A stretch of 54,676 nt of DNA from Puniceicoccales bacterium (GTDB lineage Bacteria; Verrucomicrobiota; Verrucomicrobiia; Opitutales; LL51): positions 1-54,676 of the forward strand of contig JAITJQ010000078.1 in assembly GCA_031278845.1 (NCBI GenBank), read 5' to 3'. Shown here piece after piece: positions 20,143 to 42,966 of this stretch. Both the position numbers and the translations under genes were made by a program. The notes beneath the pieces were generated by a model, which was not told the DNA's origin, made no database searches, and worked only from the letters and a program-made list of their open reading frames with translations. The first letter of the stretch is position 1. Each line of letters opens with the position of its first letter.

Positions 20143-20219
20143 GCGCCTCTAGCTCAATTGGATAGAGCATCTGACTACGGATCAGAAGGTTGCAAGTTCG
20201 AATCCTGCGAGGCGCGCCA
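20143..20219 (+). tRNA. tRNA-Arg (anticodon ACG), CCA encoded
   Basis: Hand-folded cloverleaf: acceptor GCGCCTC/GAGGCGC, D arm GCTC..GAGC, anticodon stem TCTGA/TCAGA with loop CTACGGA, T arm GCAAG TTCGAAT CCTGC (one mismatch), discriminator G, then CCA. Confidence 0.85.
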
Positions 20220-21120: not shown

Positions 21121-21193
21121 GGGGTCGTAGCTCAGTTGGTAGAGCGCCACAATGGCATTGTGGAGGTCGTCGGTTCGAGACCGATCGGCTCCA
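21121..21193 (+). tRNA. tRNA-Ala (anticodon GGC), CCA not encoded
   Basis: Acceptor GGGGTCG/CGGCTCC with the G3:U70 alanine identity pair, D arm GCTC AGTTGGTA GAGC, anticodon stem CCACA/TGTGG with loop ATGGCAT, and T loop TTCGAGA. Confidence 0.88.
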
Positions 21194-21501
21194 CCCGTAT
21201 TTAAGGTTTTCAGAAAGCTAGCAGAAAAGAATTTGGGTGTCCTAATATATAAGCGCCCATCGTTAAGGGCGATATACCAGATGCTATTCTCCGGTCATAA
21301 TGAGCTAATGTCGTAATTCCTATGAGAGCGGCGCATTACCCAAATCTTGGCCCATATTGTTGAAGTTGTGGTAGAAAAGGTTGCATTGTGGGGCAGAGGT
21401 TGATCATTGGGAACAATGGTTTGGGGGGCCGAGTGAGAAGGTTGTGTTGTGGGGCAATGATTTTTCTTTCAATTTTTCGTGTTATCGTTACCCCTTAGTC
21501 G

Positions 21502-39717: not shown

Positions 39718-40161
39718 ATGGATATAAGTAGAAAAAATGGTAGGAGTGGTATGACGTTGATCGAGATATTGATTGTCATCATGCTGCTAGGTGTTTTGGC
39801 AGGCGTTTTGGTAAAATCGCTGAGTGGTACAGCTGAGGCTGGGAAGCAGGCTGCGGCGAATTTGGGCTGTGAAACAATCAAGACAGCTCTGATGGCCTAT
39901 AAGACAGTTAAGGGCCAGTGGCCAGCGGACAAAGCTACGCTTGTTAATTCTGGTTTCATCGAGAACGATACATTTATAAACCCTTGGGGGAATGGTAATG
40001 GGTATGCTTTTAATAATGGGGTTGATGGTACTGTCCAGATACGTGTTGCATACAGCGACATTCCGGCCCCTGAGTTTGCCGACATCACTGGAGCAAATGG
40101 TGCTGCCTACACCCTGCATCCTTCGGGGAAACTTGAGCCTAAGCCCGCCGCCCCCCACTGA
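39718..40161 (+). CDS. prepilin-type (type II secretion pseudopilin / type IV pilin-like) protein
   Basis: Class III signal: RSG|MTLIEILIVIMLLGVLAGVLV, with Gly at -1 and Glu at +5. 147 aa. No other T2SS or T4P genes in the window. Confidence 0.8.
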   Translation: MDISRKNGRSGMTLIEILIVIMLLGVLAGVLVKSLSGTAEAGKQAAANLGCETIKTALMAYKTVKGQWPADKATLVNSGFIENDTFINPWGNGNGYAFNNGVDGTVQIRVAYSDIPAPEFADITGANGAAYTLHPSGKLEPKPAAPH

Positions 40162-40188
40162 TATTTAACGATTATTGGGATTATTTTC

Positions 40189-40212: not shown

Positions 40213-40365
40213 ATTTCTGAAATTTTAGAAGGGAAAAAATTTCAACATTATTGCAAGGCCCCAACATTTATCGCACGATTATTGAAGAATTCCGTTATTC
40301 TACAGATAATCAGCTCCCCAGAATCTCTTCTTCAAAAACCTTTTGATCATTTTAATTCCGTTTTC

Positions 40366-41555
40366 CATCATACAATTATTGAAGAATTCCGGCATCCCGA
40401 AAAATTTGAACAAAATCCTCCAGATTCTCGCCATCGGGTACGGGTTGATTTTGAACGAAATCGCGCCAAACCTGCTCCACGAGATCTCTAGAAATGGAAT
40501 TTTGTTCAATACGCCCTAGGGATTTTTGCAAACTCTCATGATCAAGAAACCGCTCAATTAACCCATTTATCTGCCCCCATTGCAAGCCTTTCTGAATGCC
40601 TTCCTGCAAGCCTTCCTGCAAGCCTTCCTCTTTCTGCCGTTCCAGTTCTTCGTAGTAGGTAGCCACTTCCTGAACTTCTTCCGCGTAAGCCAACTGATCA
40701 TTCCAATTCAAACCACTAAATTTCAGCCTATCCAGCGCTCTAGCAATTTCCCGGGGCATGCCGATGTTTTGGTATTTTTGAATCTCATCCGCTGTGAACT
40801 TTCCCGAATCTTCCATTGCGTAAGACCACCATTCCGCTGCGGTGAGCGCTTCTCCCCTTCGCATTTTAGCGATAATTTCCTTTATTTTATCATCCCAAGA
40901 CTGCTCTATCGCATCCCTTATCTGCTTTTGATGTTGCCTCCATCCTAAGCTTTTCTGCCTGCTTGCTTGCAAGTCTTCCCGTTCACGGCATTCCATTTCC
41001 TGAGCCTCTTTTTCTAAATCTTCCATCATACAATTATTGAAGGATCCCAGCGTTTTGGAGAGTTTGAACAAAATCCTCCAGATTCTCGCCATCGGGTACG
41101 GGTTGATTTTGAACGAAATCGCGCCAAACCTGCTCCACGAGATCTCTAGAAATGGAATTTTGTTCAATACGTCCTAGGGATTTTTGCAAACTCTCATGAT
41201 CAAGAAACCGCTCAATTAACCCATTTATCTGCCCCCATTGCAAGCCTTTTTGAATGCCTTCTTGCAAGCCTTCCTGCAAGCCTTCCTCTTTCTGCCGTTT
41301 CAATTCTTCGTCGTAGGCAGCCACTTCCTGAATCTCTCCCTCGTAAACCTGCTGATCATCCCGATTCCAACCACTAAATTTCAGCTTATCCAAGGCCTCT
41401 GTTATTTCCTCGGGCATGCCGATGTTTTGGTATTTTTGAATTTCATTTTCTGTGAGTTTTTCCGAATTTTCTATCATGTAATACCACCATTCCGCTGCGG
41501 TGAGCGCTTCTCCCCGTTGAATTTTAGCAGCAATTTCCTTTATTCCCTCCAATTC
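40366..41555 (-). repeat. direct repeat: ~530-bp block present twice with a 660-bp offset (40366-40895 and 41026-41555)
   Basis: The first ~290 bp of each copy are nearly identical (catcatacaattattgaag...gccttcctctttctgccgtt), while the remaining ~240 bp are clearly diverged. A 17-bp relic of the block end, ATTATTGAAGAATTCCG, recurs at 40278. Confidence 0.85.
40376..41029 (-). CDS. stand-alone Rpn C-terminal-domain protein (lacks the PD-(D/E)XK nuclease domain)
   Basis: Starts at MMEDLEKEAQEM, 4 nt after the stop of the full-length gene; the longer ORF from 41167 is an out-of-frame artefact of the repeat. Residues from IKEIIAKMRRGEALTAAEWW to the end parallel the C-terminal 170 aa of the upstream Rpn protein, and the last ~95 aa are almost identical. 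Confidence 0.65.
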   Translation of the reverse strand: MMEDLEKEAQEMECREREDLQASRQKSLGWRQHQKQIRDAIEQSWDDKIKEIIAKMRRGEALTAAEWWSYAMEDSGKFTADEIQKYQNIGMPREIARALDRLKFSGLNWNDQLAYAEEVQEVATYYEELERQKEEGLQEGLQEGIQKGLQWGQINGLIERFLDHESLQKSLGRIEQNSISRDLVEQVWRDFVQNQPVPDGENLEDFVQIFRDAGILQ

Positions 41556-42116
41556 GATTTGGATCAAACAAATCCCTTCAATTTCTTGTTCCGAAAATTT
41601 ATCGGTCATACGATAATATTTCCGGAAACTACTATCCCTGAGTGTAGAATAATCAACAAACTGAATGGCATAAACATTTTTGATTTGTGAATGCCATTCA
41701 CTTCCTCCTTCAAATTCTTGATTGGCAAAGGTGGATGCCGCGTAAAATAGTGCCCGCTTGTCGAAATTATTGTGGCGGATAATTTGCATCTCGATGATGA
41801 CATGATCACGGTTATCGATGATGGCATGGTAATCTAGAATAGCGTTCGATCGCTTGCCTTGAAGCGGGATTCTCGTTTCCCCTTTACTGATAATTTGGAT
41901 GGGCGTAGCTATGTCCACAACTTTCATATCGCGGAAGATCTCATTAATGAGTGCCGTAGCGATGCGGTTATCCGACATCATGATTTTGAATGCCGTATCC
42001 GTCGTTGCCCTTACAAAACTGGTGGGTTTCTCGAATCTACGAACTAAACTCACTCCGGGTTCTAAAAATAAATGCTCTTCTCTAGACACGCCTATAAAAA
42101 TAGCATTTTGTCTCAC
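41034..42116 (-). CDS. Rpn/YhgA-like PD-(D/E)XK nuclease (recombination-promoting nuclease / putative transposase family)
   Basis: N-terminal FVRATTDTAFKIMMSDN, core ILDYHAIIDNRDHVIIEMQI....FDKRALFYAS (the D...E-x-Q/K pattern typical of this family), and a helical C-terminal domain. Confidence 0.7.
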   Translation of the reverse strand: MRQNAIFIGVSREEHLFLEPGVSLVRRFEKPTSFVRATTDTAFKIMMSDNRIATALINEIFRDMKVVDIATPIQIISKGETRIPLQGKRSNAILDYHAIIDNRDHVIIEMQIIRHNNFDKRALFYAASTFANQEFEGGSEWHSQIKNVYAIQFVDYSTLRDSSFRKYYRMTDKFSEQEIEGICLIQIELEGIKEIAAKIQRGEALTAAEWWYYMIENSEKLTENEIQKYQNIGMPEEITEALDKLKFSGWNRDDQQVYEGEIQEVAAYDEELKRQKEEGLQEGLQEGIQKGLQWGQINGLIERFLDHESLQKSLGRIEQNSISRDLVEQVWRDFVQNQPVPDGENLEDFVQTLQNAGILQ

Positions 42117-42225
42117 ATGTAAACAAAAATATGTGTAAAAAATATCACGGGAAATGTTTTCCCAGAAGAAGGGAGAAAATATAGACCATTCGGCAAAAGG
42201 AGGCCATTGGGGAAATATGAATTAG

Positions 42226-42966
42226 TTAATGGTTGAGTAGGAAGCGAACGTCTTTGATTTGGAAGTGATTGATGAAGTTTTGTAGCAATAGGGCCGTTGC
42301 TAAAGCATCGTAGGGCGCCCGGTGAAAGGTTAGCGTCTTTGAAAGATTATGTTTCGCTACCCGATCCTTTAATTTTTTTTCCAAGCCGAAATGGTGAATG
42401 AGTCCTGCGACTTCGTAACGTTCCGCCGCGGGGTAATATTTTCTATAAATTTTGTAGGTATCGATCCACGGTCCCCAGGAAATATTTTTCATCGTTGCCA
42501 TTGTGGTGGAGGGTGGAGATTGGGGATTTTCTGAGGGAGCAGTTTGGGGAACATTTTGCGGATTGTGTTCATCCGATGGAGAATCGATTTTTCCGGGAGT
42601 GAGGCAATACTGCCGCAGGAGACGATCCTCTACGGAAGCTCCGTGAGCACAAAAAATGCCTTCCGCCCTTTTTTTAATAAAGAATGGCAAATGGTATTCG
42701 AAACTTTTCGTTTCGCCATTCGAAGAAAAGCGTGAATGTTCCGTGAAGTGGGCCGCTGAATGATCCGAATTGCTACCACAATCCGCAGCCGAAAGGTCCG
42801 CGATAGTATTGTTTTTCAATGTTACTAAGCCGTATTCCAAGATTCCATAAGTGCGGTTACCCTCGAAGTCAATGACATGTATTGTTCCTAACATAAACAC
42901 TATGGGAGATTCTGAATGAAAATTTTGAAGAGTGCAAGATTTTTTCGTGGAAATAGTTTTTTGCAA
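42226..42966 (-). CDS. DEDDh 3'-5' exonuclease (DnaQ-like) with low-complexity insert
   Basis: Exo I IHVIDFEG, Exo II FCAHGASVEDRLL, Exo III FHRAPYDALATALLL. A Pro/Ser/Gln-rich insert (PSDEHNPQNVPQTAPSENPQSPPSTT) lies between Exo II and Exo III. An alternative start MLGTIHV is at 42894. Confidence 0.7.
   Translation of the reverse strand: MQKTISTKKSCTLQNFHSESPIVFMLGTIHVIDFEGNRTYGILEYGLVTLKNNTIADLSAADCGSNSDHSAAHFTEHSRFSSNGETKSFEYHLPFFIKKRAEGIFCAHGASVEDRLLRQYCLTPGKIDSPSDEHNPQNVPQTAPSENPQSPPSTTMATMKNISWGPWIDTYKIYRKYYPAAERYEVAGLIHHFGLEKKLKDRVAKHNLSKTLTFHRAPYDALATALLLQNFINHFQIKDVRFLLNH

Follow-up and report, generated by a model that had tools for sequence, protein, structure and literature searches.

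The closest described systems are the Rpn nucleases of Escherichia coli, in which RpnL proteins are toxic and are blocked by RpnS, their own C-terminal domain made from an internal start (Zhong et al. 2023, PMC10400941). RpnS forms a helical bundle with a long first helix bearing 4-aa repeats, and the number of repeats must match for inhibition, as tested for RpnC (PMC10400941). Separate downstream genes for RpnS (rpnSs) have also been published, with ypaA (rpnE_Ss) located after rpnE and rpnC_Ss after rpnC; these copies arose independently from their own upstream genes and are lost by deletion or fusion, the N-terminal domain being fused with the rpnSs region in some cases, and rpn arrays stem from tandem direct duplications of different types (PMC10400941). 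YpaA is synthesized in E. coli, and stand-alone proteins of the DUF4351 family (PF14261) have been cited as separately encoded RpnS in some species (PMC10400941). A commentary by Koonin repeats the point on separate downstream RpnS copies, and our search of the literature after 2023 on RpnS and RpnL found nothing beyond the PNAS paper and its commentary. Here, we describe such a gene pair on contig JAITJQ010000078.1 of a Puniceicoccales bacterium (assembly GCA_031278845.1; 54,676 nt, the whole of which is referred to as the window): a full-length Rpn nuclease gene (gene A, rpnL) followed on the same strand by a candidate rpnSs-type tail gene (gene B).

A sequence-only reading of this stretch had noted that E. 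coli Rpn toxins are blocked by a C-terminal protein from an internal start, which agrees with the published account (PMC10400941), and had proposed that the tail protein is encoded here as its own downstream gene. The arrangement is as proposed but is not novel, since ypaA and rpnC_Ss had already been published (PMC10400941); the locus is a new example of a described arrangement and not a new kind of system. We read the pair as an RpnL toxin followed by an antitoxin copy of the RpnSs type, of which the last ~95 to 100 residues would be the effective part, kept matched to the toxin by gene conversion within a locus undergoing birth-and-death turnover, and we assign this reading a probability of about 0.55.

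Anatomy of the gene pair

Judged by its profile matches, gene A is a Rpn-family PD-(D/E)XK nuclease, as had been proposed from its translation. With the family taken as TIGR01784 / PF12784 (PDDEXK_2; COG5464), profile searches gave 66.5 bits (E = 3.9e-18) for PF12784 at a curated cut-off of 27.4 and 58.3 bits (E = 1e-15) for TIGR01784 at a curated cut-off of 52.1. Close homologues carry the NCBI name [quoted passage not shown] which is the TIGR01784 title. Across 21 aligned homologues, M110, Q111, and R121 do not vary at all and D95 and E109 almost never, and D40 was assigned from the conserved TDTAFK motif. Residues D40, D95, E109, Q111, and R121 are the counterparts of RpnA D11, D63, E82, Q84, and R94, mutation of which abolishes the RpnA phenotypes (PMC5350276).

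The AlphaFold2 (AF2) model of A has an overall predicted local distance difference test score (pLDDT) of 83 and consists of an alpha/beta core (residues 75 to 188), four short helices (193 to 244), a 54-residue repeat helix (252 to 305), and three terminal helices. A Foldseek search of this model against the PDB returned McrC, NucS, Cas4/ACE1, SduA, and MspJI as top matches, all of them PD-(D/E)XK proteins and all weak (E >= 0.02, template modeling score < 0.25), and a sequence search of A against PDB chains gave chance matches alone (E = 0.46). The repeat region has a weak Yae1_N match in Pfam. Because the gene call for A in the searched sequence collection (P0002) and its homologues begin at the GTG at 42089, and because residues 1 to 25 are disordered in the model (pLDDT < 50), this GTG is probably the true start, which gives a protein of 351 aa. 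We read A as a full-length RpnL, with an N-terminal PD-(D/E)XK endonuclease and a helical C-terminal oligomerization module carrying 4-aa repeats, for which DNA cutting and toxicity are predicted. No other rpn-like sequence was found in the window besides the A/B locus.

Gene B begins with an ATG located 4 nt 3' of the TAA of A, and both this 217-aa open reading frame (ORF) and its restriction to the helical C-terminal ~170 aa of A were as the sequence-only reading had described them. Residues 49 to 217 of B align without gaps to residues 192 to 360 of A, with 139 of 169 positions identical (82% aa; BLASTP, E = 2e-98), and in the DNA the two copies form a direct repeat with a period of 658 nt, 525 nt of which are 89.5% identical. 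B does not match PF12784 and lacks the nuclease domain; all that it shares with A is the helical C-terminal module, in which the 4-aa repeat block is unchanged, and its AF2 model is all-helical (pLDDT 83.6).

The ~45-aa N terminus of B had been described as unique, which does not hold. It begins with MMEDLEK, followed by an ELERRE-like stretch, the degenerate repeats EDLQ ASRQ KSLG WRQ, and then QIRDAIEQSWDD. Nucleotides 51 to 95 of B match the repeat region of A (blastn, 75.6% identity, E = 7e-5), such that the degenerate repeats pair with EGLQ EGIQ KGLQ WGQ of A and QIRDAIEQSWDD pairs with QINGLIERFLDH. The DNA of this N terminus, ~48 aa in all, also aligns with the start of the intact 94-aa tail gene at the syntenic locus of a relative (L029), MEDYEKGLQEGLQ...QIKGLIERFLDHE. 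These two matches identify codons 1 to 48 of B as the 5' part of an older tail gene that has since decayed. An alternative alignment, in which the B N terminus (SLQKSLGRIEQNS..., E = 0.003) would copy the tail, was replaced by this better-supported alignment to the repeat region plus QI..IE..D.

The middle part of B, which copies the linker helices of A, has evolved almost neutrally under relaxed constraint. Across the stretch corresponding to A192-268, the B branch has acquired about 20 derived nonsynonymous changes, versus 6 polarized (at most 12.7) synonymous ones. The resulting omega (nonsynonymous to synonymous rate ratio) is about 0.4 to 0.8, whereas it is 0.04 to 0.12 between orthologues, and the linker of B departs at many positions from residues conserved in every orthologue. 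If B works, its last ~95 to 100 residues alone look maintained.

A single tandem duplication with a unit of 658 nt was rejected as the origin of B: codons 4 to 48 resemble neither A147-191 nor the sequence after the second junction, and the extreme 3' end of B resembles the downstream relic and not A. B is therefore a mosaic that several events produced.

In B, 134 residues separate the ATG from the repeats, which does not match the internal-start position of RpnS (8 to 20 residues before the repeats), and an in-frame GTG (V122) lies 13 residues before the repeats, without support as a start. The tail genes of L029 and L003 and several short homologues start 5 to 13 residues before the repeats. 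Within A, there is no confident internal start; candidates are M214, M233, and V265 (GTG). Short homologues consisting of the C-terminal part only (P0039, P0052, and P0062, starting MPE...; P0053, starting MKYSDKF; P0049; and P0033) have recurrent starts at three positions, equivalent to Met214 of A, Met233 of A (GMP motif), or just before the repeats, which are candidate internal or tail-gene starts. Another short homologue, P0037, was dropped as a stand-alone gene, its frame being open to the contig edge.

A conversion tract on the repeat and tail module

The near-identity of A and B is concentrated in an internal segment of 237 nt. There are 3 mismatches in the 237 nt of this tract and 56 in the 286 nt outside it (Fisher p = 1e-12), and uninterrupted identity extends for up to 109 nt (permutation p = 5e-5). 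Divergence is ~19% in the 5' flank and again in the last ~45 coding nt, where the last ~10 codons of B resemble the downstream relic rather than A. Identity had been described as graded toward the 3' end; the near-identity is real, but the mismatches along both copies delimit a sharply bounded internal tract rather than a simple gradient. Within the tract, no orthologue is as close to B as A is. The segment is therefore, on the evidence of the alignments, a statistically clear gene-conversion tract, in line with the earlier suggestion that gene conversion or selection may maintain it. The tract takes in most of the tail as well as the helix with the 4-aa repeats, and the repeat block EGLQEGLQEGIQKGLQWGQINGLI is identical in A and B (5 = 5). 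This is the module that sets toxin-antitoxin specificity in E. coli Rpn proteins (PMC10400941).

Comparison of paired upstream and downstream tail copies points to purifying selection on the downstream copies in relatives. Synonymous and nonsynonymous differences number 7 and 4 in the window, 6 and 4 in L003, 7 and 0 in L027, and 11.5 and 12.5 in L029. Under a null model in which the downstream copy evolves neutrally and the upstream copy is constrained, the pooled P is about 3e-5 (P = 6e-4 for L027 alone), on small counts that gene conversion may affect. Such selection lends indirect support to a tail protein that would be made and would bind and block RpnL.

Table 1. Features of the rpn locus in the window (positions in the 54,676-nt stretch)
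Feature	Position	Strand	Remarks
Gene A (rpnL, full-length Rpn nuclease)	41034..42116	minus	mechanical ORF of 360 aa; likely start GTG 42089, 351 aa
PD-(D/E)XK core of A	41544..41999	minus	codons ~40-191; D40, D95, E109-x-Q111, R121
C-terminal helical module of A (duplicated unit)	41037..41543	minus	codons 192-360; from BLASTP and AF2
4-aa repeats in A	41226..41285	minus	codons 278-297: EGLQ EGLQ EGIQ KGLQ WGQI
Gene-conversion tract, copy in A	41066..41302	minus	codons 272-351, 237 nt
Gene B (217-aa ORF, candidate rpnSs-type tail gene)	40376..41029	minus	mosaic of three parts
B codons 1-48, decayed 5' part of older tail gene	40886..41029	minus	blastn; DNA alignment with L029
B codons 49-128, copy of A linker helices (A192-271)	40645..40885	minus	~19% diverged, relaxed constraint
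Gene-conversion tract, copy in B	40408..40644	minus	codons 129-208; spans most of the tail and the repeats (40568-40627)
Junction 1: end of A, TAA, TTGT, then ATGATGGAA (B start)	41021..41042	minus	exact 22-mer
Junction 2: end of B, TAA, TTGT, then ATGATGGAA	40363..40384	minus	exact 22-mer
Relic of another tail-gene start, 23-aa ORF MMENGIKMIKRFLKKRFWGADYL	40300..40371	minus	frameshifted relative to the MIENFEKIKRIYEDEVQEVITYY start of L027
Relic of tail-gene 3' end and stop, AACGGAATTCTTCAATAATCG	40270..40294	minus	22/25 (88%) match to the end of B; repeat family D2
Fourth copy of the junction motif, CAATAATNGT	40168..40177	minus	just past the stop of the convergent pseudopilin gene

Comparison with the E. 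coli Rpn loci

The pair resembles rpnE-ypaA and rpnC-rpnC_Ss of E. coli in that a C-terminal copy with the repeats lies on the same strand within a few nt of the nuclease gene, is derived from its own upstream gene, and is gained or lost through duplication, deletion, and fusion. The protein families differ, as the E. coli Rpn proteins belong to PF04754 (YhgA-like) and A belongs to PF12784/TIGR01784; except in the repeats, they share no detectable pairwise similarity. In the K-12 record, ypaA (61 aa) starts 12 nt past the rpnE stop, and its product equals RpnE 244-299 at 75% aa and 84% nt identity with one extra repeat. YpaA begins exactly at the internal start and has its own Shine-Dalgarno sequence, whereas B is 217 aa long, starts 4 nt past the stop without a Shine-Dalgarno sequence, and carries 48 decayed residues and a 77-residue linker copy ahead of the repeats and tail. 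The tail after the repeats is ~65 aa here and ~35 aa in E. coli, and the repeat number is matched in A and B but mismatched in K-12 RpnE and YpaA. The intragenic RpnA_S, RpnB_S, RpnC_S, RpnP2_S, and Clostridioides difficile RpnS share the same module of a long repeat helix and a small helical bundle, a layout also seen in the AF2 models of A and B; those proteins are made from an internal start, whereas the short protein here has its own gene.

Tail genes and relics in relatives

Homologues of B are few, with 9 at E <= 1e-3 in a 5.8-billion-entry collection and 43 cluster representatives. Among close relatives, the records named by organism are all Puniceicoccales metagenome-assembled genomes (MAGs), and the others are Joint Genome Institute (JGI) metagenome contigs. 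The syntenic order is poly(A) polymerase, a 246-aa gene, rpn, the pseudopilin gene, and a 585-aa gene. A survey of this site gave a divided result, with an intact tail gene in three lineages and relics or absence in three others. L003 has a 401-aa RpnL and a 136-aa tail ORF, with 16 and 14 repeats, respectively. L027 has a 361-aa RpnL and, 4 nt after its stop, a tail ORF of at least 80 aa, with 7 and 2 repeats. L029 contains the end of an upstream copy, the same junction, the intact 94-aa tail gene, and three further junction relics; this tail gene is 22% diverged from the upstream copy and still an intact ORF with proper repeats. L026 has a tail relic with stops, L025 lacks the tail gene, and L001 has a single copy, behind which lies the relic also present in the window. 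The repeats of A fit (E/Q/K)G(L/I)Q, with 5 to 6 units; repeat number ranges from 2 to 16 among copies of the clade and from 3 to 16 in full-length genes and C-terminal ORFs.

Other relatives show different rearrangements of rpn. L006 and L024 carry tandem full-length copies, and L010 has lost the C terminus. In L005, the nuclease core is deleted (L005:4001-4915; residues ~71 to 119, including the catalytic D/E-x-Q, deleted and the gene frameshifted), leaving an intact 198-aa C-terminal ORF with 3 repeats that may be an orphan antitoxin-like remnant or simply the result of recent decay. L002 has an in-frame stop and N-terminal fragments; such rpn fragments (residues ~11 to 76) lie in tandem beside full or interrupted copies at L002:1490-2042 and L008:2274-2472, so partial duplication is not confined to the C-terminal module.

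Remnants of further tail genes also lie downstream of B (Table 1). The 22-mer CTTCAATAATTGTATGATGGAA, comprising gene end, stop, four nt, and next start, occurs in exactly two copies, with 0 expected in shuffles. CAATAATNGT lies on the minus strand at 41030, 40372, 40275, and 40168, which are four of its five matches in the window, against 0.77 expected. The sequence-only reading had noted a 17-bp relic at 40278; the relic is genuine but larger than stated, extending over 40270-40294 with a junction and the 23-aa tail-start ORF upstream of it. This ORF is ~95% identical in L001, and the A-B junction recurs in L001, L027, and L029. Tail-gene starts of the form M(M/I)E(N/D) are similar to the internal YYM(I/M)ENSEK of RpnL, which makes Met214 the probable starting point of the first tail gene.

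Divergence around rpn

Judged from alignments to two close relatives, the rpn locus is a local divergence hotspot. Compared with L004, the flanks of the window are 93 to 99% identical, and identity is 84 to 86% from the rpn promoter onwards, into the N-terminal part of the gene (41500-42250). Compared with L001, the flanks and the relic are 93 to 97% identical, and the C-terminal module is 52 to 86% identical with saturated synonymous divergence (dS) (40400-40870). Four independent metagenome or MAG contigs break within ~17 codons at the module boundary (aa 197 to 214): L004 and L008 end at aa 208 and aa 203, respectively, and L001 and L024 start at aa 197 and aa 214. Such breaks point either to duplication of the module in those genomes as well or to its hypervariability among strains that were assembled together.

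A second variable gene, encoding a pseudopilin (N_methyl), abuts the rpn locus. Between the window (39718-40161, plus strand) and L001:759-1244, its 5' half is ~97% identical, and its 3' half shows 55 to 81% identity in 150-nt windows, with a Gly/Pro/Ala-rich insertion near the C terminus in L001.

Gene neighborhood and expression signals

The locus is surrounded by genes for SurE, a major facilitator superfamily (MFS) transporter, an ATPase, the pseudopilin, poly(A) polymerase, guanylate kinase, and HemN. A search with PADLOC defense models gave only a weak match of the repeat region to "C3a178 putative invertase." No terminator-like site was found between A and B on the gene strand, and a promoter scan gave as many sites as shuffled sequence and hence is uninformative. 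Shine-Dalgarno-like motifs precede 8 of the 29 window genes (~28%), so the missing motif before B is equally uninformative.

Upstream of rpn, ~70 nt (42090-42165, minus strand) are conserved in the second tandem copy of L024 (455-545), including ...ATATTTTT(G/A)TTTACATG..., and this stretch follows a terminator-like hairpin at 42148-42164. A TTTACA / TTTTAT pair, absent from the output of the consensus promoter scan, would have transcription begin at, or close to, the GTG at 42089 and raises the possibility of a leaderless rpn mRNA. Antisense ORFs of 122 and 150 aa (MQAFLNAFLQAFLQAFL...) lie opposite the repeats of B (40580-40948, plus strand) and A (41238-41690, plus strand), respectively, and L003 and L005 have comparable ones. 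Rather than genes, these ORFs look like a mechanical by-product of the purine-rich periodic repeats. Rfam and tRNA scans found nothing in or near the locus. The only Rfam or ARAGORN matches in the window are tRNA-Arg(ACG) at 20143-20219 and tRNA-Ala(GGC) at 21121-21195 (plus strand), which are unrelated to it.

How the locus may work and evolve

Family membership, the anatomy of the pair, the conversion tract, the relaxed and constrained segments of B, and recurrence in relatives are established. The antitoxin mechanism follows by analogy with RpnA, RpnB, RpnC, and RpnP2, from which we infer expression, binding, toxicity, and defense. B would be co-transcribed with A, and its translation would begin by termination-reinitiation at TAA-TTGT-ATG or at an internal start, translational coupling being plausible. 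Its last ~95 residues, comprising the repeat helix and terminal helices, would pair with the identical module of RpnL and keep the nuclease inactive, so that B would add to or replace the intragenic RpnS. Gene conversion, whichever of the two genes is the donor, would keep repeat number and tail matched. The locus would turn over through repeated partial duplication, conversion, internal deletion, and decay, a history that would account for the mosaic N terminus of B and the relics downstream.

Several observations weigh against this reading. About 125 of the 217 codons of B are decayed older copy or relaxed linker, and the 217-aa product, as annotated, may not be the functional unit. Gene conversion is able to mimic constraint in the selection test. 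The downstream copy is mismatched to the upstream one in L003 (16/14), L027 (7/2), and, by one repeat, E. coli RpnE/YpaA, so inhibition should be prevented in these pairs by the RpnC rule. The N-terminal fragments of L002 and L008 cannot be antitoxins, and partial duplicates therefore also arise as by-products. The genomic context is one of housekeeping genes and not a defense island. A Foldseek search of the B model against the PDB returned nothing below E = 2.9, and the PDB sequence (A) and structure searches gave no match to RpnS, by which likeness to the RpnA_S crystal structure is neither demonstrated nor excluded. A and B do not match DUF4351 (PF14261) at E <= 1; YpaA itself does not match this family either, for which reason we dropped it as a criterion. 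For the E. coli precedents, RefSeq annotates ypaA as a pseudogene, and the published evidence on rpnSs stops at synthesis, short of an antitoxin role (PMC10400941).

In a rival history, rpn loci are prone to tandem partial duplication and B is a nonfunctional by-product of it, caught between birth and decay, open by chance, and partly refreshed by neutral conversion from A. The nearly neutral linker, with its higher omega than in the orthologues, the already decayed N terminus, and the two further relics that follow B all speak for this history, as do the N-terminal fragments in L002 and L008, the stop-bearing relics in L026 and L001, the absence of the gene in L025, and the full tandems in L006 and L024. 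The origin of rpn arrays from tandem direct duplications of different types (PMC10400941) and the pseudogene status of ypaA in RefSeq are also consistent with it. Neutral debris does not, however, readily explain why tail differences are mostly synonymous in four independent pairs (7 synonymous and 0 nonsynonymous in L027, P = 6e-4; pooled P about 3e-5), why the L029 tail gene remains an intact 94-aa ORF with proper repeats at 22% divergence, or why the conversion tract coincides with the specificity module, and YpaA protein is made in E. coli (PMC10400941). We regard a by-product as somewhat unlikely on this balance, though it deserves serious consideration.

A role that is compatible with the antitoxin reading, and that would make it secondary, is that tail copies act mainly as a reservoir for switching the C-terminal module of the nuclease, by conversion or by crossover fusion between the long and short genes. 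Silent-cassette systems such as pilE/pilS, in which promoterless partial copies lie beside an expressed gene and exchange sequence with it by gene conversion, offer an analogy only: the families are unrelated, and the partial copies here keep start codons and open frames, without evidence of programmed conversion. Repeat number and tail would be swapped and specificity re-tuned, in a manner resembling the use of silent cassettes for antigenic variation. Conversion has been demonstrated across the repeats, the downstream repeat number often differs (16/14, 7/2, and one extra in E. coli) within a clade range of 2 to 16, and two genomes with flanks 93 to 99% identical to the window have rpn at 52 to 86%, dS being saturated in the C-terminal module. 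The contig breaks of four assemblies fall between aa 197 and 214, at the module boundary, but strain heterogeneity explains these breaks equally well, and fusions of an N-terminal domain with rpnSs are known (PMC10400941). The direction of conversion, or selection of the resulting variants, is without direct evidence, and a pure donor cassette could do without a start codon, yet ORFs that are intact and retain the conserved stop-4 nt-ATG junction persist. We consider a primary reservoir role improbable. A comparably doubtful extension would see the stack of tail modules, a mosaic copy and two relics bounded by stop-TTGT-ATG, as the trace of a cycle of antitoxin renewal and specificity switching. 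The module from about residue 192 would then be a mobile cassette, re-duplicated downstream and exchanged with the nuclease gene by conversion or fusion, such that toxin and antitoxin change repeat number together, and the recombination-promoting activity of Rpn might help drive the exchange. If true, this would amount to a built-in diversification mechanism for a defense toxin, beyond a spare antitoxin.

Read as an RpnL with a downstream antitoxin copy, the locus would extend the RpnL/RpnSs arrangement, documented so far in E. coli, to a PF12784-type Rpn on a Puniceicoccales chromosome in the Verrucomicrobiota. It preserves a legible evolutionary record, with a conversion tract on the specificity module, relaxed constraint elsewhere in B, and nested relics. 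Intact tail genes at the same syntenic site in three other lineages (L003, L027, and L029) support the view that downstream tail genes are selected rather than debris. Together, the window (5 = 5), L003 (16/14), and L027 (7/2) provide natural matched and mismatched toxin-tail pairs with which the generality of the repeat-number rule may be addressed.

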